DNA of 41,491 nt from an uncultured Mycoplasma sp. (GTDB lineage Bacteria; Bacillota_I; Bacilli_A; RF39; UBA660), in the NCBI GenBank assembly GCA_964538205.1, contig CAZIFN010000002.1:1-41491 (forward strand). The letters run 5' to 3'. Both the position numbers and the translations under genes were made by a program. Positions 6,229-17,648 of the stretch are shown piece by piece (position 1 is the first letter of the stretch; each line of letters begins with the position of its first letter). A model generated the notes under the pieces. It made no database searches. It saw nothing but the letters and a program-made list of their open reading frames with translations, and was not told the DNA's origin.

Positions 6229-6711
6229 ATGGAAATAATAGAATATAATGAAAAATATATTGAAGATGTAAAAGACTTACTTGTAGAACTTGAAGAGTAT
6301 ATTATATCTATTGATAAAGACAATTTAGATCAATTACATCAAGATTATAGAGAGAAAATGGCAATTTTAGATTTAGAAGAAGTAAATAATTATAGTGGAA
6401 AATGTTACTTGGCTATTGAAAATAATAAGGCAGTAGGATTAATTATGGGCTGTATACCGCCTTATGAAGAGTATGATTATTTAGATTATAAATGTCCTAA
6501 AAGAGGAGAAGTAACAGAATTGATCGTTAGTAAAAAAGTTAGAAGTAAGGGACTTGGTCAAAATCTATTAACTAAAATGGAAGAGTATTTTAAAAGTATA
6601 GGTTGTGAATATATTTTAGTTGATGTCTTTGCTTATAACGAAAATGCAATTAAGTTTTATAATAAAAATAACTATCATGCAAGAATGTATACTGATATTA
6701 AGAAAATATAA
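6229..6711 (+). CDS. GNAT family N-acetyltransferase
   Basis: 160-aa ORF with RBS AGGAG and motif A VRSKGLGQNLLTKMEEYF. Confidence 0.8.
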   Translation: MEIIEYNEKYIEDVKDLLVELEEYIISIDKDNLDQLHQDYREKMAILDLEEVNNYSGKCYLAIENNKAVGLIMGCIPPYEEYDYLDYKCPKRGEVTELIVSKKVRSKGLGQNLLTKMEEYFKSIGCEYILVDVFAYNENAIKFYNKNNYHARMYTDIKKI

Positions 6712-6794
6712 TTAAAAGTACCTAAATACTTATTTACATTCATAAAATAAAAAAACTTCTCGTTTAATATAATATAAATGAGAGGAGAAACTTT

Positions 6795-7748
6795 ATGAAT
6801 GATAAAGCTCAAAAATATAGTGTTGTCAATAATTATAAAAAAGCATCCAGTAATAAAGAAAAGGTAAAATTCTGTTATGTTCAAGGATTAAAAGGAGAAA
6901 AAGGAGATAAGGGAGACCCGGGTAATATAAGTGTTGCTGTAGGAAATGTTGAAACCGTAGAGCCAGAAATATCTGCAAAAGTAGAAAATGTTGGAACTAA
7001 TGAAAATGTAGTTCTAAATTTTAAAATTCCAAGAGGAAAAGATGGAAATGAAGGTCCACCGGGTCCAAAAGGTGATACCGGTGAAAAAGGAGAACAAGGA
7101 ATTCCTGGAATACAAGGAGAAAAAGGTGATAAAGGAGATCAAGGTCCGGCAGGATTAGAAGGAATAAGTGAAAGTATAGTCATAGAAAAGACAGAAACAT
7201 TAGATTCGACTGAAGAAGCTGAAGTTACCGATGACTTTGAAAATAATGTTCATCATTTGACATTTCATATTCCAAAAGGAGAGCCTGGTCCAAAAGGAGA
7301 TACCGGTGCAGGAGCTGGTTCCACATCATTAAATGCAATAATTTATGCCGGCTACCAAAATGCCACAGATTCAAGACCGTTAACAATAAAAGAAAAAATA
7401 TTCATTCCAAGTTCAACAAGTTTTTTTGATGTTCCAACTAGCATCAATATTGACATAAAAACAACAGGTATTTATGAAATTACATTATGTGGAAAAATTT
7501 CTGGTGTTACACCCGACAATGGTGCCAAAGTTTTTCTATTAAATACTGTAACAGGAACTGTAATAAATAATTTGACATTTGAGTTAAAAGAAGGAGAAAC
7601 AAGTGATATGTGTTTTTCTGGATCAACAATAACAGAAGTATTTGCACCAGCAACTTTTCAAGTGAAAACAGGTATTAGTAATGATCCTAATACTGCTAAT
7701 ATAACGTTTTCTGATGTCATTTTAATAGTAAAAAGATTTAATACTTAA
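6795..7748 (+). CDS. Collagen-like triple-helix repeat protein with a BclA-like globular C-terminal domain
   Basis: Three G-X-Y tracts (GLKGEKGDKGDPG; [43 protein letters not shown]; GEPGPKGDTGAGAG) are followed by a roughly 140-aa beta-rich tail. RBS is GAGGAG. Confidence 0.8.
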   Translation: MNDKAQKYSVVNNYKKASSNKEKVKFCYVQGLKGEKGDKGDPGNISVAVGNVETVEPEISAKVENVGTNENVVLNFKIPRGKDGNEGPPGPKGDTGEKGEQGIPGIQGEKGDKGDQGPAGLEGISESIVIEKTETLDSTEEAEVTDDFENNVHHLTFHIPKGEPGPKGDTGAGAGSTSLNAIIYAGYQNATDSRPLTIKEKIFIPSSTSFFDVPTSINIDIKTTGIYEITLCGKISGVTPDNGAKVFLLNTVTGTVINNLTFELKEGETSDMCFSGSTITEVFAPATFQVKTGISNDPNTANITFSDVILIVKRFNT

Positions 7749-7750
7749 AC

Positions 7751-7802
7751 AAAAAACTAGATAAAAGATATAAAATACAACATATCTATTTAATCTAGTT
7801 TT
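7751..7802. terminator. Bidirectional terminator shared by convergent collagen-like genes
   Basis: AAAACTAGAT (7753-7762) pairs with ATCTAGTTTT (7793-7802). An inner AGATAT/ATATCT helix is present, and the hairpin is flanked by an A-run and a T-run. Confidence 0.6.
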
Positions 7803-8779
7803 ATAATGCTCATTTTAGCAGTTACACTACCATCAAAAATTAAGTCTGTAGTTTGTTCAGAAGTAATAACTAATGTTAGTTCATCATCTTCTATTAGTCC
7901 AGTTATCACTGTACCATAAGCGTTACATATAACATTTGCTTTTCCCTCACATTTAATTTCGCTACCTAAAATTTTTGCATCGGTATTTTTAACACTCAAA
8001 ACAAAATCAGTATCAACAGATGGAGCAACATTTATGAAATAATTAATTTGATATATACCAATTTTCCTAATGCCTATCGCAAAATTAGTATCATATCTAA
8101 CAAAAATGGCCGGACCAGCTTTTTCTAAAGGAATTATTGTTTCGGTATCAGCCATAACATTAAACGTTTGTGTCGACTCTGAATATCGTTCTCCATATGC
8201 ACCTACGCCACTAGGATCGCCTTTAGGTCCCTGCTCTCCTTTAGGTCCAATATCACCTTTTTCTCCAGTGTCACCTTTAGGACCAACAGGACCAGGATCA
8301 CCTTTTTCTCCTTTTTCACCTTGGATTCCAGGAATACCTTGTTCTCCTTTAGGTCCAATATCACCTTTTTCACCAGCATCACCTTTAGGACCAACAGGAC
8401 CAGTATCTCCCTTTTCTCCTTTTTCACCTTGTATTCCAGGAATGCCTTGTTCTCCTTTAGGTCCAACATCGCCCTTTTCGCCAACATCACCTTTAGGACC
8501 AGTAGGACCAGCAATATGTCCTGCATTTTCATAATCCATAATATCTTCATTCCAATAGTATAAATCTCCATTTATCAGATAAGTATCGCCCATAGTACCT
8601 ACTGGATGTTCATTTTTTAATTCATCTAAAGAAATAAAAGAACCTTTAATACTGATTCCAGTTCCAGGAGCACCTCTAGGACCTGTAGGTCCTATAATAT
8701 TACAAATTCCAAGCTCCTTTAACTTTCTTCTCAAAACAATATTCTCTTTTAAATAATTAAAATCGTCACATTCTTTCAT
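7790..8779 (-). CDS. Collagen-like triple-helix repeat protein (BclA/tail-fibre-like)
   Basis: [12 protein letters not shown], then a globular insert ([14 protein letters not shown]), then about 100 residues of uninterrupted G-X-Y, then a beta-rich C-terminal domain. RBS is GGAGG. Confidence 0.8.
8213..8509 (-). repeat. In-frame tandem repeat, about 2.7 copies of a 108-bp (36-aa, 12 G-X-Y) unit
   Basis: GPKGD[V/A/T]GEKGD[V/I][20 protein letters not shown][T/P]GPV recurs head-to-tail. The antisense and alternate-frame ORFs in the track (8070-8534, 8203-8571, 8321-8563) are by-products of this repeat. Confidence 0.85.
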
Positions 8780-8935
8780 ACTTACCTCCTGATGCTACTA
8801 TATTTTATGTAAATAAATAAAAAATGTATCTAAAAGTTTCCAATTAATATCAAAATAAAATCAAAATACATTTCCATTAATATCTAAAAATGATATACTT
8901 AAATAGAAATTAAATACAATAAAAAGGAGTAAATT

Positions 8936-10936
8936 ATGAAAAATGAAAAATTAGAAATGTTTTTTTTAGCCACCATTATAATTATTATATCATCTTTTGC
9001 AGCCATGATTTCTGGTTCGGGAACAGTTTTTGGAATTGTAATGTGGACACTAATTGTTTCCGTGACTTATCTTACAAATCGCAAAAAAAGACTCTCAAAA
9101 AATAAAGAAACGGAAATACAACATGTTCCTATTAATCCAACTTCGTATATTAAAATATGCCCTAAATGTAAAACAAAACTAAATTTAAACGACAAGTTCT
9201 GCAAAGCTTGTGGCTATAAATATGTAATAGGAACAGATAATAATTTTAATAGAATAATTGTTAGCCAAAGTAACTATGATGAAATATTTAGATTAGATCA
9301 AGAAGCCATGTTAACTGCTTTTATTAATAGAGAGTTGAAAAAAGCACAGTTTGATCCAAACAAAATGTTACCAGCAGATGTCTTAAAAAGAAAAAATAAT
9401 CTTAGTATAATTTTTAATATACTAGTATTTATATACATATCATTAATATTTTTTCATTTTCCAACCCTAACATATATCATTGGCTTAGTTATATTAATAG
9501 TTTTTTATAGAAAGACCAAAAAATATGATTTAATGACATACTTAAAAAAAGAAATAAAGGCTAGGCCGGGTGAAAAAGTATCAAATATTATTATGCATGC
9601 TAAATCTAATTTAGTAACTGATAATAAACAATTCACTAGAAAGGTAGCATTTATAACCGCAATAGTCTTACCATTAATTATTTTTATGAATCCCCACATA
9701 ATGTATGAAGAAACATCAGAAGGATATGCAGTAAGATTTTATACCTTTGGTTTATCTAACTTTACTAGTGCAACAATACCTGCTACTCATAATGGTAAAG
9801 ATGTCGTCAGTCTAAGAGGAAATACTTTTTCCAATATGCCATTTTTAACTACAGTTTCTTTACCAGATACAATTGTAGAAATAAGAGGACAAGCATTTAA
9901 AAATGATGTTAGTCTAATAGATGTAAACATTCCAGTAAATTTAAAATATTTAGGCGGGGGAGCGTTTTATAATTGTATGTCAATAAGAAAAATAACTCTA
10001 CCAGATAGTTTAACAGAGTTAGGAGGAGAATCATTTTATGGTGCCAGCAACTTAGAAGAAATAACTCTATCAAAAAATCTAACTGAAATAAGAGGAAATA
10101 CTTTTGAAAATTGTACCTCCCTAGAAACAATTACTATTCCTGATAAAGTAACAAGAATAGGTGGACATGCCTTTTATAATAATAGTTCATTATCAAAAGT
10201 TAATATTTCTGAATATAGCCAATTAAATGAAATAGGCTCATCCGCATTCAGACTTTGTGGAAGATTATATGAAATAACTTTACCAAGAGGAGTTTATATT
10301 AATGAAAGAGCCTTTAAAGAAAGTCCAACTAGAATATACTATTTTGATCAAGAATTAATTGATAGAGATATATCTGGTAATAATACTTGGCTAAAAAAAT
10401 ATGAAAAAGTCACATTTACTGATTATAATATTAGCGTTAGTATAAAAACTTATGACTATAATCAAGAAAATTTAAATAAAGGAACAATTATTATTGACTT
10501 TAATGATGAAATAAATAATGATATTAGATTCAGTTTTTCTTCAAATGCTACAAAAAGTGACATAGAAAATGATGCTGTTAAATTTGTATATAAAGATTAC
10601 ATCTTTCAAGTACTTAGTTTTCAAGAAAACCAGATGGTAATCACAATTAATAAAAATATTGATTATAAAGATTTAAAAAATAAAGAAAGCTATAGTTTTG
10701 GAGAAGAAGGAGACTCTCTACAACTCTCTAATTCTAACTACATAATTAAACTAGAAAAAAAAGAACAAATAAATGGACGAATTAATTATTATTTTTCTTG
10801 TAATGGCTCTGAATTTAATCATTCAATTGGAAACGGGTATTATACTTCAGCAACTTATAATAATGATGAAGTAAAAATACAGCTTAGTTCTTTTTATGGA
10901 GCTCAAGGAATTTATTTAAATATTTATTACAATTAG
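8936..10936 (+). CDS. Multi-pass membrane protein with a cytoplasmic zinc-ribbon and an extracellular BspA-type leucine-rich-repeat (LRR_5) domain
   Basis: Hydrophobic helices lie at the N-terminus, around residues 165-190 and around 235-255. Zn-ribbon CPKCKTKLNLNDKFCKACGY. At least seven LRR units of about 23 aa (e.g. IPDKVTRIGGHAFYNNSSLSKVNI). RBS is AAGGAG. Confidence 0.75.
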   Translation: MKNEKLEMFFLATIIIIISSFAAMISGSGTVFGIVMWTLIVSVTYLTNRKKRLSKNKETEIQHVPINPTSYIKICPKCKTKLNLNDKFCKACGYKYVIGTDNNFNRIIVSQSNYDEIFRLDQEAMLTAFINRELKKAQFDPNKMLPADVLKRKNNLSIIFNILVFIYISLIFFHFPTLTYIIGLVILIVFYRKTKKYDLMTYLKKEIKARPGEKVSNIIMHAKSNLVTDNKQFTRKVAFITAIVLPLIIFMNPHIMYEETSEGYAVRFYTFGLSNFTSATIPATHNGKDVVSLRGNTFSNMPFLTTVSLPDTIVEIRGQAFKNDVSLIDVNIPVNLKYLGGGAFYNCMSIRKITLPDSLTELGGESFYGASNLEEITLSKNLTEIRGNTFENCTSLETITIPDKVTRIGGHAFYNNSSLSKVNISEYSQLNEIGSSAFRLCGRLYEITLPRGVYINERAFKESPTRIYYFDQELIDRDISGNNTWLKKYEKVTFTDYNISVSIKTYDYNQENLNKGTIIIDFNDEINNDIRFSFSSNATKSDIENDAVKFVYKDYIFQVLSFQENQMVITINKNIDYKDLKNKESYSFGEEGDSLQLSNSNYIIKLEKKEQINGRINYYFSCNGSEFNHSIGNGYYTSATYNNDEVKIQLSSFYGAQGIYLNIYYN

Positions 10937-10948
10937 GTTGGTGAAAAC

Positions 10949-12682
10949 ATGAAATTTATTCATTTATTATATGTGCCAACAATGGCATGTAATATGGGCT
11001 GCAAATACTGTTACTTAGAAGATAACACAGTAGATGAAAAAACAAAATATGGTGCATTAGATACCTTAAAGTATGCAATAGATAAATTCAAATTAGCAGA
11101 AGTAATTCCTTTCAATATTTCTCTTCACGGAGGAGAAGTAACTACTTTAGATAAAAATACTTTTCATGATATTATAAAATATATAGACAACTATTATAAA
11201 GAAAATAAGGAAATAATTACCAAAGCAGGATTTAAATTAGGTAGTCCACATATTAAAACAAATTTATATAACTTAGAAAAACATATTGATACGATAAAAG
11301 AATATAATGTTTCCATATCTGGAAGCCTAGATCTTCCTTTATCACTTCACAATAAATATAGAGTTACAAAAAACAATCAAAAAACTTTAGACAAAATATT
11401 AAAAAATATTGAGCTTTTACGTAATATACCAAATAAGAAAAAAGTATCAGCCACTATTTTTAAAGAACATTATAACTACCTTGATGAAATTATAGATGAT
11501 ATAAAATTTTTACATAATAATACATGTTTAGATATGAATGATTTTAACTTTATGATTGGATTTGACTATAATTCAAATGGCATTCTACATCACTTAACTG
11601 AAGAAGAACAAGTTGAGTTTTATAAACGTATGCATGAAGAATTTGACAATACAGATTTAGATTATGGTGTTTCAGGTCCTTGGTTTGATGAGTTTGGCCC
11701 AGAATACTGTACAAATTGTGATAACTGTGGCGAAAAATTCTTTCTACTAGAACGAAACGGTGATATATATTCTTGTGTACGAGGACAAAAAAATAAAGAT
11801 TACTATTATGGTAACATTTATACAGACAGTGTAGAACAAATATTACAAACCGCAAAAGATAAAATATATTCTAATCATAACAAATTAAACTTTAATGAAG
11901 AATGTAGTACCTGTGGATATTTATACTTATGCAAAACCGGTTGTCCTTTTGTAAAAAATAATTATATGACAAATAAAAGTTATACATGTAAACTCCAACA
12001 AAAAATGTATGAAGACCGAAACTTAAAAAAAGATGAATATAATGAAGAAACTGTATATAAATACGTTTTAAAAATGAGGTCTCAAGACGTTATTAAGTAT
12101 ATACCAAAAACAAAAACAACAGAATATCCATCATTAGAAGAGATTATAAAAAATGATGAAAATTTAAAATATATATATGATAATGAATCTTTCATATTAG
12201 AAATAGATAACATAAAATACTCTATTTCATCACAAATAATAAAAAAGACTAGAGATATAATATATATAACACCAGAAAGTAAAGTAAAAATATATATGAA
12301 AAAAGATCTTATTAAAGAACTATGTGATTATCCAGAAAATAATTCATTATATATAATTTTATTATCCGGAAATTTAGTAAAATATGGAGATGAAGAAAGA
12401 ACAAAACAAAGACATTTAGCAACCATTCAAATATATAAGGGAATATTAGACAGTGTAAACGAAAGTCAACAAAATTACTATTCATACGATATAACAAACT
12501 TATTTAATGAATACAAAGCTGGCTTCTCAAGTGACATGCCTAATAATATTTTCTTTACAACATCATCATTAAGAGATTATCATTACTTAAAACAAAAAGA
12601 AAATGCTTATTATCATATACAGGCTATAAATTTACCATTTCAAAATATAGAATTTTATTATATAGATAAGGAGTTAAAATAA
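10949..12682 (+). CDS. Radical SAM/SPASM-domain enzyme with an uncharacterised C-terminal extension of about 200 aa
   Basis: N-terminal CNMGCKYC (CX3CX2C), a GGE motif (LHGGEVT), and SPASM-type auxiliary cluster cysteines CTNCDNCG...DIYSC and CSTCGYLYLCKTGC (CX2CX5CX3C). At 577 aa it is much longer than typical maturases. Confidence 0.8.
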   Translation: MKFIHLLYVPTMACNMGCKYCYLEDNTVDEKTKYGALDTLKYAIDKFKLAEVIPFNISLHGGEVTTLDKNTFHDIIKYIDNYYKENKEIITKAGFKLGSPHIKTNLYNLEKHIDTIKEYNVSISGSLDLPLSLHNKYRVTKNNQKTLDKILKNIELLRNIPNKKKVSATIFKEHYNYLDEIIDDIKFLHNNTCLDMNDFNFMIGFDYNSNGILHHLTEEEQVEFYKRMHEEFDNTDLDYGVSGPWFDEFGPEYCTNCDNCGEKFFLLERNGDIYSCVRGQKNKDYYYGNIYTDSVEQILQTAKDKIYSNHNKLNFNEECSTCGYLYLCKTGCPFVKNNYMTNKSYTCKLQQKMYEDRNLKKDEYNEETVYKYVLKMRSQDVIKYIPKTKTTEYPSLEEIIKNDENLKYIYDNESFILEIDNIKYSISSQIIKKTRDIIYITPESKVKIYMKKDLIKELCDYPENNSLYIILLSGNLVKYGDEERTKQRHLATIQIYKGILDSVNESQQNYYSYDITNLFNEYKAGFSSDMPNNIFFTTSSLRDYHYLKQKENAYYHIQAINLPFQNIEFYYIDKELK

Positions 12683-13041
12683 TGAATAAAGAACCCGAAA
12701 CATATGAAGAATTAATTAGACAAAAAAAATGTGTAGACATAACAAAGTATTATGATATAACTGCAGAAGAACTAGAAGAAATATACAACTTTCTAACAAA
12801 AAATGTTAATGGAGAAGTACTAGCTGGATTAGATAATATAAGGCTAAACGTAGGAAATACTACTATAGCAATAATAAATGCAACTCTTAAACTAGTAGCA
12901 GGAATAGATGGTTTAAAAATAACCAATAGTTCTTTTAAGATAATTCCTCACTACTCACCATCATCAGGATCTAGTTCATATGGAGGATCATCATCAAACA
13001 ATAACAATAATAACAATAACAATAACAATAATAATAGATAG
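12682..13041 (+). CDS. Small protein with a low-complexity Ser/Gly/Tyr tail ending in 13 consecutive Asn; candidate rSAM substrate
   Basis: Its start overlaps the rSAM stop (TAATG), implying translational coupling. The C-terminus reads HYSPSSGSSSYGGSSS-N13-R. No Cys-rich core and no TM helix. Confidence 0.6.
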   Translation: MNKEPETYEELIRQKKCVDITKYYDITAEELEEIYNFLTKNVNGEVLAGLDNIRLNVGNTTIAIINATLKLVAGIDGLKITNSSFKIIPHYSPSSGSSSYGGSSSNNNNNNNNNNNNNR

Positions 13042-13052
13042 GAGTAAAAAAT

Positions 13053-14066
13053 ATGCCATTAATATCTGATAATTACCATATAAAAAAATTAAATAAATAT
13101 GGAATAAATATAAAAACAAAATATATAGTTGATAATAAAATATTAGAACGTAATACTAATAATTCTAATAATGATGATATTCTAAATGGTATTAGATGTG
13201 AAAAAGGCTATTATTTAAAAGATAAACTATTACATACAGAGAAAATATTTGACTCTAGAATAGAATATACATTTATATCAAAAGAACAAGAAGCAACAGA
13301 ATATACTTGTCCAAATTGTGGTATGCATTCAAAACTAAAAGACTTTATAGATTGTTGTCCTTATTGTCATACGTATTATAATATTGATTATACAAATAAA
13401 AATTTAGCAACCAAGTATCATTATGATAGAGTATTAGCAAATACAGGTTATAGAATAATAACAGCCATAATAGACTTCATAATTAGTTTAATATTAAGCT
13501 ATATATTTATAAAAATAACATCAAGAACATTTAATAATTATGATATTTCAAAAATATTTATATATGGACTAATATTATCACTTGTACTGTATTACATATT
13601 CTATATTGCAGATGCCTATATTATCTTAACACCAATAAAAATATATAAAGATAAACAAAATGAAAAACAAAAATCTTTCTGGGAAAGAACAAAAATAGAT
13701 AAGAAAAAGTTTTTTAATAACTTAAATTATGAAATAGGAAAAAAATATTATAATATAGATAATATAATTGATTATGATATTATAGATTATATAGAATTTA
13801 AGGATTATACTAAAGACAATAAACTATATGTAGAAGTAAATGCAGAAGTAAGAATTGTCTATTATGAAAATAATAAAATACATTCTAAAAATATTAAAGA
13901 TAAATATATAATGAGAAAAGAAAATGATGATATTTTAGAATTAAAAGATAAAGCAAATTTAATAAAATGTCATAACTGTGGTGCTTCAATTGATGCTAAT
14001 AAAGGAGAATGTACATATTGTCATACTAAGACAAAATATCTTCAAGCCTGGGTATTAACTAACTAA
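13053..14066 (+). CDS. Membrane protein with two zinc-ribbons flanking two TM helices
   Basis: CPNCG...CCPYCH (N-terminal) and CHNCG...CTYCH (C-terminal). Hydrophobic segments IITAIIDFIISLILSYIFI and IFIYGLILSLVLYYIFYI. RBS is GGAG. Confidence 0.65.
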   Translation: MPLISDNYHIKKLNKYGINIKTKYIVDNKILERNTNNSNNDDILNGIRCEKGYYLKDKLLHTEKIFDSRIEYTFISKEQEATEYTCPNCGMHSKLKDFIDCCPYCHTYYNIDYTNKNLATKYHYDRVLANTGYRIITAIIDFIISLILSYIFIKITSRTFNNYDISKIFIYGLILSLVLYYIFYIADAYIILTPIKIYKDKQNEKQKSFWERTKIDKKKFFNNLNYEIGKKYYNIDNIIDYDIIDYIEFKDYTKDNKLYVEVNAEVRIVYYENNKIHSKNIKDKYIMRKENDDILELKDKANLIKCHNCGASIDANKGECTYCHTKTKYLQAWVLTN

Positions 14067-14210
14067 AAAGTTCGTATAAAAAACTATCCATACATAAATA
14101 AAGAAAGTATTATGATTATTAAGTGTTTTTCATATTCATATTAACACATGACTAGACTCAATGTTTCAAATGATATGTCATATTTGAAGTTTATACCAAT
14201 ACTATTAATG

Positions 14211-14237
14211 CCATATTAATAAATAATATGGTTTTTA
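14211..14237 (+). terminator. Rho-independent terminator ending the 8.9-14.1 kb operon
   Basis: CCATATTA, 5-nt loop, TAATATGG, followed by TTTTTA. Confidence 0.55.
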
Positions 14238-14807: not shown

Positions 14808-15906
14808 ATGGAAATAAAAGAAATGAAAGAAATACTAAATAAATATTTACTAGAAGTAGAAAATCTATGGAGGTCACTTTGACATAGATGAAAAAAAAGA
14901 AAAGTTAAAAGCACTACAAGCAGAAACTGAAAATCCTAATTTTTGGAATAATCGTGAAAAAAAAGACAAAGTATTATCTGAGCTTAGTAGTATTAAAGAA
15001 ACAGTTAATAGTATAGAAAATGTACAACAAAATATTAAAGACACTATAGAAATTGTAGAATTATTAGAAGAAGAACTAGATGAAGAATTATTAAAACAAG
15101 TAGAAATAGTAACTAATAAATTACCTGAGGATATAGAAAACTTAAATCTATTTTTACTACTATCAGGTCCCTATGATGCATCGGATTGCATTTTAGATAT
15201 TCACTCAGGTGCCGGTGGTACAGAAGCTTGTGATTGGGCCTTAATGCTATATCGTATGTATACTCGCTGGTGTGAAAAGAAAAAATATAAAATAGATTTA
15301 TTAGATTATCAAACAGGTGAAGAAACTGGTATAAAAAGTGCCTCTCTTTTAATAAAAGGACATAATGCTTATGGATATTTAAAAAATGAAAAAGGCGTTC
15401 ATCGTTTAGTAAGACTGTCACCATTTGATGCTAATAATCGTCGTCATACATCTTTTGCATCAGTAGAAATAACTCCAGAAATAAAGCAAGATAACACTAT
15501 AGAAATAGATGAAAAAGACTTAAAGATAGATGTTTATCGTTCATCAGGATCCGGAGGACAAGGAGTAAATACAACAGATTCGGCAGTAAGAATAACACAC
15601 TTACCAAGTAAAATAGTAGTCACTTGTCAAAATGAAAGAAGTCAAATTCAAAATAAAGAGCAAGCACTCCGAGTATTAAAAAACAAATTATTAGTAAAAA
15701 AATATGAAGAACAGGAAAAAGAGTTAAATAAATTAAAAGGAAATCAAATGAACATAGAGTTTGGTTCTCAAATAAGAAGTTATGTAATGCATCCATATTC
15801 GATGGTAAAAGATCATCGTACAAATTGTGAAACAAGTAATGTAGAAAAAGTATTAGATGGAGATATAGACGAATTTATAAAAAGTAATTTAAAAAGAGGG
15901 TTATAA
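14808..15906 (+). CDS. prfB: Peptide chain release factor 2, expressed via a programmed +1 ribosomal frameshift
   Basis: ORF0 is ATG 14808 plus 24 codons to CTT TGA C (TGA 14880-14882). The +1 frame from GAC 14881 is continuous with track ORF 15244-15906. RF2 motifs SPF (RLSPFD) and GGQ (SGSGGQGVN) are present. Confidence 0.9.
14868..14883 (+). other. prfB recoding site (internal SD-like GGAGG plus slippery CTT TGA C)
   Basis: TGG AGG TCA CTT TGA C: GGAGG lies 3 nt upstream of the CTT-TGA-C shift site, the same layout as the classical RF2 autoregulatory site. Confidence 0.85.
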
Positions 15907-15907
15907 T

Positions 15908-16789
15908 ATGAATATTTTTTCAAAAAACAAAAACTTTAGAATACTAGAAGAAATAAAAGAAAAATCAAAATATAAAAGATTAGTCAAATTTATCATTGGC
16001 TGTTTTTTAGTTGCTATTGCATATAATCTTTTCTTAGCACCAAATGACATTGTAGCAGGTGGTGTAGGCGGAATTGCTATAATATTAAATGAAATATTTA
16101 ATATAGAATACTTTATTGTAATATTGATAAGTAATCTTATTCTTTTAATAGTAAGTTATATATTTTTAGGTAAAGAAAAAACAAAAGGTTCAATACTTGG
16201 CTCATTAGTTTTTCCAATTTGTGTAAAATTAACATCTAATATTGGAGCATATATAGATATAGATAATACCCAATTATTACTATCAGCTGTCTTTGGTGGC
16301 GTACTATATGGTTTTGGTGCCGGTATGATTTTTAAAGCTGGATTTACCGGCGGAGGAACAGACATTATAAGTCAATTAATTAATAAATATTTAAAACTTA
16401 GTATCGGAAAAAGTATTCTATGTACAGACGGCAGCATCGTAGTTTTATCATCATTTGTTTTTGGAACTAACAAATTACTATATTCTATAATTACACTTTA
16501 TATAATTAGTTTAATTTCAGATAGAGTTATACTTGGAATTTCAGATAGTAAAGCATTCTATATAGTAACAGATGAAGAAAAAGCAATTAAAGAATACATA
16601 CTTAAATACTTAAATCACGGAGTAACAGTATTCAATGCTAAAGGTGGTTTTGCTAAAGAAAAACAAACTGTATTAATGTGTGTATTACCAACAAAAGAAT
16701 ATTATAGATTAAAAGAGGGAATATCAGAAATAGATCCAGATGCATTCTTTGTAGTAACTGATGCTTATGAAGTATTCGGAGGTGAATGA
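15908..16789 (+). CDS. YitT family membrane protein (DUF161 repeats plus C-terminal DUF2179)
   Basis: Multi-pass membrane N-terminus with GGxGG motifs. The C-terminal block ILGISDSKAFYIVTDE...VTVFNAKGGF...DAFFVVTDAYEVFGG is typical of the family. Confidence 0.8.
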   Translation: MNIFSKNKNFRILEEIKEKSKYKRLVKFIIGCFLVAIAYNLFLAPNDIVAGGVGGIAIILNEIFNIEYFIVILISNLILLIVSYIFLGKEKTKGSILGSLVFPICVKLTSNIGAYIDIDNTQLLLSAVFGGVLYGFGAGMIFKAGFTGGGTDIISQLINKYLKLSIGKSILCTDGSIVVLSSFVFGTNKLLYSIITLYIISLISDRVILGISDSKAFYIVTDEEKAIKEYILKYLNHGVTVFNAKGGFAKEKQTVLMCVLPTKEYYRLKEGISEIDPDAFFVVTDAYEVFGGE

Positions 16790-16790
16790 T

Positions 16791-17648
16791 ATGGATGAAA
16801 TAATAGAAAAACTAAAACGAAAAAAAGTTGGAAAAAGAGTTGCAATGCTAATAATTTCTCTCCTTTTTAGTGCCATAGTATATAATTTGTTTTTATTACC
16901 TGTAAATTTAGTAACCGGTGGCTCAAGTGGAATTGCTACAATAACTAAATATGTATATGATATAGATCCAGCTTTAATGATTTTAATAGTATCAATAATA
17001 TGTGCTATTTTAAGCCTCATGTATTTAGGTCCAGAAGTAACAGCTGTAACATTATTAGCAAGCGTATTATACCCTTTATTTGTAAAAATAACTGAACCAT
17101 TGGTTAGTATAATTCAAATTGATTATAGTGATATGTTTGTTATAACATTATTTGCAGGCGTCTTAAATGGAATAGCTAATGGAATAATGTATAAAACAGG
17201 ATACAGTAATGGTGGCTTACCAGTAATCAGCCAGATATTAGAAAAATACCATAAAATACCAATTGCCAAAACTAGTGCTTTTATGAATATAACAATTGTA
17301 CTCATTGGTGGAATATTCTTTGGATCAACCAATGTTATGTATGCTATTATTCTTATCTATTTAAATAGTATAATAATAAATAAAGTATTATTAGGAATAT
17401 CAAATAATAAAGCCTTCTATATTGTTACAACAGAAGAAGATCAAATTAAAAGTTATATTATAAGAACATTAGGACATAGTGTAACTGTTTTTGATGTAAA
17501 AGGTGGTTTCTTAAATAAGAAAAGTAAAGTAGTATTAACAGTTGTTCCAACAAGCGAATATTATCGTGTAACAGAAGGTATAAAAGCAATTGACAGTAAT
17601 GCATTCTTTGTTGTGACTGACTCATATGAAGTAGTAGGTGGAAAATAA
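16791..17648 (+). CDS. YitT family membrane protein, tandem paralog
   Basis: Same architecture as the upstream gene. I prefer ATG 16791 (GGAGGTGAATGAT upstream) over track start 16761, which overlaps the previous gene. Confidence 0.8.
   Translation: MDEIIEKLKRKKVGKRVAMLIISLLFSAIVYNLFLLPVNLVTGGSSGIATITKYVYDIDPALMILIVSIICAILSLMYLGPEVTAVTLLASVLYPLFVKITEPLVSIIQIDYSDMFVITLFAGVLNGIANGIMYKTGYSNGGLPVISQILEKYHKIPIAKTSAFMNITIVLIGGIFFGSTNVMYAIILIYLNSIIINKVLLGISNNKAFYIVTTEEDQIKSYIIRTLGHSVTVFDVKGGFLNKKSKVVLTVVPTSEYYRVTEGIKAIDSNAFFVVTDSYEVVGGK

Follow-up and report, generated by a model that had tools for sequence, protein, structure and literature searches.

The stretch of DNA considered here comprises 41,491 nucleotides of contig CAZIFN010000002.1 (assembly GCA_964538205.1) from an uncultured Mycoplasma sp. 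of the RF39 lineage of the Bacilli, and is referred to in its whole length as the window. It has a base composition of 26% GC and carries on its forward strand four closely spaced genes, which we call A, B, C and D (Table 1). They encode a predicted membrane protein with leucine-rich repeats (LRRs), a radical S-adenosylmethionine (SAM) enzyme with a SPASM domain, a small protein that ends in a run of asparagines, and a protein with two zinc ribbons on either side of a hydrophobic hairpin. Here we report the conservation of the four genes, the architecture of the enzyme B and its family-wide association with asparagine-tailed proteins in distant bacterial lineages and in phages, and discuss the possibility that the asparagine tail is the substrate of the enzyme.

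A and B are separated by 12 nt, B and C overlap by 1 nt in the sequence TAATG, and 11 nt lie between C and D. Open reading frame (ORF) calling reproduced the positions, the strand and the gaps given in a preliminary description of the locus, which had been made from the sequence alone and regarded the four genes as a single unit. Comparison with other genomes bears this out. A survey for B, taking one genome per species, was positive in 221 species-level genomes, 80 loci of which were fetched for neighbourhood analysis. The gene order A-B-C-D on a single strand is invariant in 80/80 loci; A occurs directly upstream of B in 79–80 of them, C right after B in 79 and D in 76, and the median gap between B and C is −4 nt, the two genes overlapping or abutting. 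D is missing from four loci and C also from one; three of the four (L011, L033 and L036) stop short of the missing gene, and the fourth is L078. When the neighbouring ORFs were clustered without supervision, the A, B, C and D families were each recovered in 76–80 of the 80 loci and any other family in at most 11. The preliminary description had staked its reading on the four genes co-occurring outside this genome; they do so throughout the loci fetched, as the sole recurring families, and A-B-C-D is one conserved module whose arrangement is far from chance.

B itself has thousands of close relatives, and the enzymes of the 80 loci share 66–79% identity with that of the window. The genomes that host A-B-C-D are mostly uncultured gut metagenome-assembled genomes (MAGs) labelled Bacilli, Tenericutes or Mollicutes (RF39-like), together with a few labelled Lachnospiraceae or Acetatifactor with a GC content of 0.41–0.50. 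One contig with the four genes is labelled viral (L161); judged from its ORF list, it has no structural phage genes over the 13 kb read.

Table 1. Positions of the genes and features of the A-D cluster and of its immediate upstream neighbours in the window
Feature	Position	Strand	Description
Two convergent collagen-repeat genes upstream of A	6795–7748; 7790–8779	+; −	ORFs of the window
Candidate sigma-70-type promoter upstream of A	8871–8899	+	TTTCCA-17-TATACT, extended TG; consensus scan, weak pattern-only match
Gene A	8936–10936	+	666-aa predicted membrane protein: N-terminal transmembrane pair, Cys4 ribbon, more transmembrane segments, LRR, variable C-terminal domain
A, Cys4 zinc ribbon	9158–9211	+	C75, C78, C89, C92; each Cys 92% conserved in 65 orthologues
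A, BspA-type LRR region	9773–10330	+	approximately aa 280–465; Pfam LRR_5, LRR_8
Gene B	10949–12682	+	577-aa radical SAM/SPASM enzyme; Pfam Radical_SAM, Fer4_12, SPASM
B, CX3CX2C radical SAM motif	10988–11011	+	C14, C18, C21; 100% conserved in 79 orthologues, invariant in alignment A2 of distant members
B, SPASM domain	11708–11989	+	C254, C257/C260, C276, C319, C322, C328, C332, C347; two auxiliary [4Fe-4S] clusters
B, family-specific C-terminal extension	12026–12679	+	aa 360–577, about 200 aa; alpha/beta domain in the AlphaFold2 model
Gene C	12682–13041	+	119 aa; proposed substrate of B; ORF start overlaps the stop codon of B (TAATG)
C, folded domain	12682–12954	+	aa 1–91; two helices and five strands in the AlphaFold2 model
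C, disordered Ser/Gly linker and poly-Asn tail	12955–13038	+	N106–N118 at 12997–13035, then Arg and stop (N13-R)
Gene D	13053–14066	+	337 aa: conserved N-terminal domain, ribbon 1, two-helix hairpin, cytoplasmic domain (predicted), ribbon 2
D, zinc ribbon 1	13308–13367	+	C86, C89, C102, C105; 100% conserved in 73 orthologues
D, hydrophobic hairpin	13443–13610	+	aa 131–149 and 168–186; Kyte-Doolittle scan
D, zinc ribbon 2	13968–14021	+	C306, C309, C320, C323; 97–99% conserved
Possible intrinsic terminator of the A-D unit	14211–14237	+	weak 9-bp AT-rich hairpin followed by U5; folding free energy −9.1 kcal/mol, z = −1.6

The radical SAM enzyme B and its C-terminal extension

B belongs to the radical SAM superfamily, as judged from its match to PF04055 (4.5e-11) and from the superposition of its core on that of the anaerobic sulfatase-maturating enzyme (anSME), and it carries a SPASM domain (PF13186, score 22.7 against a cutoff of 21.5; TIGR04085, 42 against 27). 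The cofactor-binding motifs are complete: in addition to the invariant CX3CX2C motif, all eight cysteines of the SPASM region are 100% conserved among the orthologues and align one-to-one with C255, C261, C276, C317, C320, C326, C330 and C348 of anSMEcpe, the ligands of the auxiliary clusters Aux I and Aux II. Sequence searches of the Protein Data Bank (PDB) with the single protein or with a shallow alignment (A1) returned nothing relevant; the profile of the diverse B family (A2) alone reached anSME, with anSMEcpe 4K36 as the top match (E 1.4e-18, residues 6–355). The fold search with the full-length model gave matches to the core only, those to anSMEcpe 4K36–39 being the best (Foldseek E 3e-5), followed at lower rank by BlsE, CteB, SuiB and ChlB. 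The AlphaFold2 model itself is moderate overall (predicted local distance difference test, pLDDT, of 64), and its SPASM region is poorly modelled.

The scaffold of B is anSME-like, yet B is not an anSME, because the curated cutoff is missed widely and a key position is altered. The anSME model TIGR03942 is the best NCBIfam match (6.5e-26) with 91.3 bits against a cutoff of 349.45. Across all 25 listed NCBIfam radical SAM models B scores 14–91 bits against cutoffs of 265–855, the exception being the generic SPASM domain model. In NCBIfam it exceeds no cutoff of a curated peptide maturase (DynA, PapB, HxsB, DarE/W, AmcB, GrrM, YhhB, CbpB and others), DynA (9.5e-25) and PapB (2.5e-21) being the next-best curated matches; a placement in a well-characterised family, which would have spoken against the preliminary description, was thus not obtained. 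Next to the Aux I ligand Cys276, anSMEcpe carries Asp277, which we take to be the proposed catalytic base; at this position B of the window has V277 and the consensus of the family a histidine, and an invariant Arg-x-Gln comes next. The chemistry that is best understood for anSME therefore probably does not carry over to B. Neither the proteins of the cluster nor the flanking ORFs scanned gave a match to a sulfatase domain.

Beyond the SPASM domain B continues into an extension in which the preliminary description could recognise no motif. Comparison across the family reveals invariant residues, YG..K..H ... T..H..N..YH.Q..N.P, that are kept among members only 26–48% identical, some of them clearly from high-GC hosts. 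Searched alone against 1.84 billion representative proteins, residues 360–577 retrieved 106 clusters only, and in every full-length match the extension sits C-terminally on a radical SAM protein of approximately 580–616 aa. AlphaFold2 predicts an alpha/beta fold with a pLDDT of about 64–90 (10-residue blocks) over residues 400–555, for which Pfam, NCBIfam, the PDB and the fold search offered no match. As far as sequence comparison reaches, the extension is specific to this radical SAM family, and we propose that it docks or reads the tail of the substrate. The phage protein family phrog_1802 matches B of the window in full length, extension included (1.5e-38, residues 9–571 against positions 49–551 of a profile of 556). 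The profile and structure searches that the preliminary description had suggested for all four proteins were rewarding for the core of B and, as detailed below, for the LRR of A; the family libraries gave no family for either C or D, and none for the extension of B by itself.

Poly-asparagine tails beside B-family enzymes

Protein C appears to be a small cytoplasmic protein consisting of a folded domain of 90 aa, a flexible Ser/Gly linker and 10–18 C-terminal asparagines. It has no signal peptide and no family match in Pfam, NCBIfam, PADLOC or PHROG, and a fold search with its model gave no significant match in the PDB or BFVD. The pLDDT of the model is approximately 87–95 over residues 10–90 or so (10-residue blocks), and disorder is predicted for the tail; lying moreover at the C-terminus, it would be free to enter an active site. 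An alignment of 79 orthologues starts with a conserved MNKEPETYEELIRxKRC, passes through a variable middle and returns in its later half to a conserved IDG...IIPHYxPSS and a near-invariant end, GGSSS-N(10-18)-R. The single cysteine of the folded domain is 97% conserved.

In a window of 26% GC a poly-Asn tail could be compositional noise, functionally unconnected to the cluster, since such genomes, as the literature on Plasmodium and Dictyostelium attests, commonly contain low-complexity tracts rich in AAT. We regard this explanation as practically dismissed by the distribution and the coding of the tract. C alone among the 69 ORFs of the window carries such a tail, the 618 ORFs of the low-GC control loci include no example, and the tract is kept in genomes of 58–62% GC, always at the extreme C-terminus. 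Its codons are scrambled, AAC and AAT being interleaved in the window; over 77 tails AAC accounts for 37% of the codons as opposed to 14% in the adjacent radical SAM genes (odds ratio 3.5, p ~2e-55), and the median length of the longest stretch of identical codons is 3, that of the tracts 13. The scrambling of codons therefore speaks for selection for an amino-acid homopolymer and against slippage-prone DNA.

The association of the enzyme with such tails extends to the whole family. Counting as Asn-tailed any ORF with at least four consecutive asparagines within its last 12 residues, we find one at 106 of 112 B-family loci, as compared with none among the 3,846 ORFs around unrelated radical SAM enzymes at 105 control loci, which include viral contigs and 23 low-GC loci. 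In 105 distinct proteins the run is preceded by Ser (96), Thr (6), Cys (1) or Arg (2), counts 4–20 asparagines with a median of 13 and is followed by at most six residues, usually Arg, Gly, Tyr or none. Two further branches carry Tyr or Pro in the preceding position, and it is the near-C-terminal Asn run that is thus the universal feature. We propose to define the family by the pairing of the long radical SAM enzyme with a neighbouring gene whose product has its Asn run no more than 10 residues from the C-terminus, as C of the window does.

Relatives of B at 26–40% identity almost always adjoin a protein with an Asn-run C-terminus. In two loci with a GC content of 0.60–0.62 (L081 and L082; radical SAM enzyme 37% identical) the next downstream ORF ends in ...RSS-N17-G and ...RNS-N14-G, respectively, and a protein with two transmembrane segments, unrelated to A or D, lies upstream. 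In a third (L221, GC 0.58) the pair stands alone; the downstream 120-aa protein ends in ...DGTWT-N10-G and begins with a (K/R)RC helical hairpin related to that of C (hhalign 85%, 42 columns). These high-GC C-like proteins (6850–7299 in L081, 4878–5240 in L221) possess a hydrophobic, possibly membrane-associated stretch before the Asn tail that C of the Bacilli lacks, and which may be a cis equivalent of A and D.

The pairing is also found in phages. Mu-like Campylobacter prophages identical to phage CAM-P21 (MW462221.2) carry a B-family enzyme annotated as 'hypothetical protein' in the gene order baseplate wedge, tail protein, tail fibre (phrog_1162, PF12571), phrog_10241, radical SAM enzyme, tail assembly chaperone, fibre-like protein and sheath, and here the tail fibre ends in ...SYAPSxSTNNNNY. 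In another Mu-like phage (L225) a protein ending in ...GSGPNNNF is followed by a phrog_10241 homologue and then by the enzyme; a phrog_10241/p148-type protein between fibre and enzyme is the phage arrangement. Phage members of the B family match phrog_1802 at up to 6e-142. Jumbo-phage contigs (L096, L170 and L171) encode Asn-tailed proteins with ends including ...RNNNGNNNNSCSGGW and ...FSNNNNNNLAGNV, and the partner of the distant member P0326 is a collagen-repeat fibre-like protein ending in ...GYNNNNNGNNH (1–243 in L226). The latter echoes a remark of the preliminary description on collagen-like genes beside the window cluster, but in another genome and in another manner. In one prophage (L172) the enzyme gene (7953–9710) is frameshifted with loss of the C-terminal motif and the fibre tail (6257–7339) has decayed to ...SMGNNS, which is consistent with a co-decay of enzyme and tail. 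By hhalign, C is unrelated to the phage fibre C-termini. Scans of viral contigs for P0265, P0343 and P0312 found nothing, and locus L219 is a short stretch that gives no tail reading. At the loci of P0343 (L222–L224) the radical SAM gene is followed by genes for a 2-oxoglutarate-Fe(II) oxygenase and a second radical SAM enzyme, and preceded by one for a Hint/intein-like protein ending in ...EAHLNKF.

BLAST detected neither A nor D in the three high-GC loci, and the ORF lists read for the phage loci contain no ORF resembling either. The minimal conserved system is therefore B together with an Asn-tailed protein. This reverses the weighting of the preliminary description, in which the membrane proteins stood at the centre and the poly-Asn tail was incidental.

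A small protein encoded directly after an enzyme that has maturases of peptides (DynA, PapB, DarE and HxsB among them) as its nearest curated families calls to mind a classical ribosomally synthesised and post-translationally modified peptide (RiPP), with C as the precursor whose modified C-terminal peptide would be cut off and exported, and with A and D as an unconventional exporter or immunity pair. The gene content does not accord with such a pathway: not one of the 80 loci contains a protease, an ATP-binding cassette (ABC) or major facilitator superfamily (MFS) exporter, or a RiPP recognition element (RRE)/PqqD domain. Likewise, Pfam and NCBIfam found no protease, exporter, PqqD-like or RRE domain or Cys-rich peptide among proteins A-D of the window, in agreement with the preliminary description. 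Where a leader would be expected, the N-terminal part of C is confidently predicted to be a folded domain of 90 aa; the phage Asn tails sit on structural tail-fibre proteins of 280–1000 aa; and A and D have no transporter-like features. We consider a classical RiPP pathway distinctly improbable.

Membrane proteins A and D and the surroundings of the cluster

The domain composition that the preliminary description had read from the sequence, an LRR and a Cys4 ribbon in A, the CX3CX2C motif and SPASM domain in B, and two Cys4 ribbons around a two-helix hairpin in D, holds throughout. A matches LRR_5 (PF13306) at 5.3e-47 with 159 bits against a threshold of 27.7, in addition to LRR_8 and zinc-ribbon families of Pfam, and gives a partial match to the NCBIfam model HupY/LrrG (1.8e-13). 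Its hydrophobic segments lie at residues 8–26, 156–174 and 233–251, and the pattern CxxC-x(8-25)-CxxC is found in 65 of 72 orthologues. The LRR is the most highly conserved part of A and transmembrane segments 4–5 are also conserved, whereas the N-terminus and residues 470–666 are variable. Hydropathy predicts a cytoplasmic location for the ribbon and an extracytoplasmic one for the LRR. D has 843 homologues, all of them unnamed, and no family above cutoff in Pfam, NCBIfam, PADLOC or PHROGs; because the loop between its two helices is short, both ribbons would lie on the same, cytoplasmic side. A and D may thus be pictured as mostly cytoplasmic proteins with Cys4 ribbons that are tethered by transmembrane hairpins. 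In hhalign comparisons neither is related to the phage partners (phrog_10241 and the tail assembly chaperone) or to the high-GC protein with two transmembrane segments, and the two would represent an elaboration of the module in gut Firmicutes.

The combination of an LRR outside the cell with an enzyme inside had suggested a defence or signalling module, in which the LRR of A would sense an external ligand or a phage and signal through the zinc-ribbon proteins to the radical SAM enzyme as effector. LRR sensors and viperin-like radical SAM effectors are both known from defence systems, the radical SAM core of B has a weak PADLOC match to pVip (2.2e-6), and homologues of B occur in phages. The pVip match is limited to the generic core, however, and A, C and D match nothing in PADLOC-DB v2; the flanks of the cluster are housekeeping genes and contain no defence islands; and in other lineages B and the Asn-tailed protein form a pair without A or D, also inside phage tail modules. 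We judge a role in defence or signalling to be very improbable, and this suggestion of the preliminary description loses its footing.

The flanking genes encode GNATs, a NUDIX protein, a peptidase S51, YitT, FtsE/FtsX with an M23 peptidase, and prfB. A prophage origin of the window cluster was considered and rejected because these flanks are housekeeping genes. A Bro-N domain protein (241–1065) with a strong match to phrog_8036 (3e-89) is the sole clearly phage-associated gene of the flanks, and no further prophage genes were noticed nearby. The two collagen-repeat genes upstream of A, which the preliminary description had called BclA-type and taken as a hint of a spore or surface function, match phage 'tail fibre' PHROGs through their collagen repeats only; their BclA_C match is below cutoff (20 as opposed to 38 bits) and neither ends in an Asn tail. 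Homologues of the two lie beside the cluster in only 0 and 2 of the 80 loci, and the link falls with them.

As to expression signals, the AT-rich region around the candidate promoter shows no enrichment of promoter-like sites. At the place where the preliminary description saw a shared terminator there is indeed a hairpin with a U-run, but it is weak, and a consensus terminator scan made no call since it has fewer than three G-C pairs. The GC skew across 9000–14000 is approximately 0.02–0.13 as compared with 0.2–0.36 in the plus-strand flanks, and the GC content dips to 0.195 over gene D; the cluster may have a history differing from that of the surrounding genes. Downstream, prfB (RF2; 14809–15906) contains a canonical programmed +1 frameshift, a Shine-Dalgarno-like GGAGG followed by CTT TGA C at 14877–14883. 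Because of this frameshift UGA can be taken as a stop codon here (code 11), notwithstanding the Tenericutes and Mollicutes labels of related MAGs. It is followed by two tandem, overlapping genes for YitT/DUF2179 membrane-protein paralogues (15908–16789 and 16761–17648).

A proposed function and its relation to known systems

The reading that we favour, and consider probable, takes A-D as one conserved module whose core is an enzyme–substrate pair, B modifying the Asn tail of C post-translationally, with A and D as lineage-specific membrane partners. The free, disordered tail of C would be captured by B, probably by way of the C-terminal extension and of the invariant Arg-x-Gln that adjoins the Aux I ligand Cys276. 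Reductive cleavage of SAM by B would then give a 5'-deoxyadenosyl radical that takes a hydrogen from a residue within the Asn run or adjoining it, resulting in a covalent modification. Of the candidate chemistries we would place first a reaction at C-beta, or a cross-link, on Asn as carried out by DynA- and PapB/NxxC-type enzymes, because these use Asn/Asp carbons and are the next-best matches of B after anSME; the second would be an L-to-D epimerisation of Asn, and the third an oxidation of the Ser, Thr or Cys that usually precedes the run. An anSME-type conversion of Ser to formylglycine at the residue before the run was down-weighted, Asp277 not being conserved and some tails lacking Ser, Thr or Cys at that position. 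A and D would most likely serve as a membrane dock for the enzyme, the modified C or both, under the LRR that A carries outside.

Several observations weigh against this proposal. The relation of enzyme and substrate is suggested by the adjacency of their genes, and adjacency is no proof. In 103 of 105 tails a Ser, Thr or Cys precedes the run, but some phage branches have Tyr, Pro or Arg there; the catalytic Asp277 of anSME is not conserved in B; and the most distant branch (L222–L224, 26% identity) has no visible Asn tail nearby. Neither A nor D was picked up by BLAST in the three high-GC loci, nor is anything like them listed among the ORFs of the phage loci that were read; and since C has no signal peptide, its link to A and D is a conjecture.

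A rival reading gives the tail a different role, that of a docking tag or of a regulatory plug for an enzyme whose true substrate lies elsewhere, be it another residue of C or of the fibre, A, D or a small molecule. Extension and Asn tail co-vary in their occurrence, which fits binding as well as catalysis; also in favour of this reading are the conserved HY.PSS / SYAPS segment, which directly precedes the tail of C and that of the Campylobacter fibres, and the 97%-conserved cysteine in the folded domain of C. The upstream segment is, however, not shared by the high-GC C-like proteins, the number of asparagines in the tails ranges from 3 to 20, and no alternative substrate gene is conserved across the different contexts. 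A docking tag appears unlikely to us, and we retain modification of the tail by B as the preferred reading.

Taking this reading beyond the Bacilli, we put forward more tentatively, as an idea that may well prove wrong, that radical SAM modification of homopolymeric Asn C-termini is common to cellular proteins of several bacterial phyla and to the tail fibres of Mu-like, collagen-like and jumbo phages. It would perhaps produce a cross-linked or D/L-epimerised 'Asn tip' serving fibre or adhesin function, the extension being a new poly-Asn reader. If the proposals hold, homopolymeric Asn tails on folded proteins would constitute a new substrate class for radical SAM/SPASM maturases, the extension a new recognition domain, and conserved bacterial poly-Asn tracts would receive their first function. 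It would also be the first indication that some phages mature their tail fibres with a radical SAM enzyme of their own, for instance in the sequenced Campylobacter phage CAM-P21, with a bearing on host recognition and phage engineering. Finally, the uncultured gut RF39-like Bacilli have only few strongly conserved gene sets without an assigned function, and A-D, present in at least 221 species-level genomes, is one of them.

The preliminary description knew of no RiPP, cofactor or defence system of this composition, and NCBIfam, PADLOC and the literature agree. None of the papers found connects radical SAM enzymes with poly-Asn tails or with tail-fibre modification, a paper on CJIE1 being concerned with a different radical SAM enzyme, and we found no curated model or deposited annotation that ties the B family to Asn-tailed proteins or tail-fibre maturation. 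The PHROGs v4 entry phrog_1802 ('radical SAM domain-containing protein') represents the same protein family as B, but gives no function beyond 'radical SAM' and no record of Asn-tailed neighbours.

The closest characterised system is anSME (PDB 4K36–4K39; TIGR03942), which resembles B in its three-cluster radical SAM/SPASM architecture with eight aligned auxiliary cysteines and in acting on a protein rather than on a small peptide. B differs in the additional C-terminal domain of about 200 aa and in the Val or His, followed by R-x-Q, at the position of Asp277; moreover, no sulfatase is found near B and its partner has no C/S-x-P/A-x-R motif. DynA, which acts in dynobactin maturation, and the PapB- and NxxC-type ranthipeptide synthases abstract hydrogen from side-chain carbons of Asn or Asp and form C-C or C-S cross-links. 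As the next-best curated matches of B they provide a precedent for chemistry on Asn, but B scores far below their cutoffs and the tail offers no Trp or Cys as a partner residue. The B system also differs from theirs in having no RRE, leader, protease or exporter, and in that its proposed substrates are folded proteins including phage fibres.

Two further enzymes offer parallels by analogy. PoyD, a proteusin-type epimerase like OspD, epimerises many residues of the Asn-rich precursor of the polytheonamides, and MftC of the mycofactocin pathway is a SPASM enzyme acting on the extreme C-terminus of a partner peptide. No PoyD-type model is among the best 25 of the 26 NCBIfam matches of B and the match to MftC is marginal (3.4e-6); the extension of B is absent from both enzymes, and neither is known to act on a homopolymer of Asn. 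SPASM maturases that act on a cognate protein are in themselves a kind of system already known, whereas the substrate class, the extra domain, the connection to phage tail fibres and the zinc-ribbon and LRR membrane partners appear to be new.

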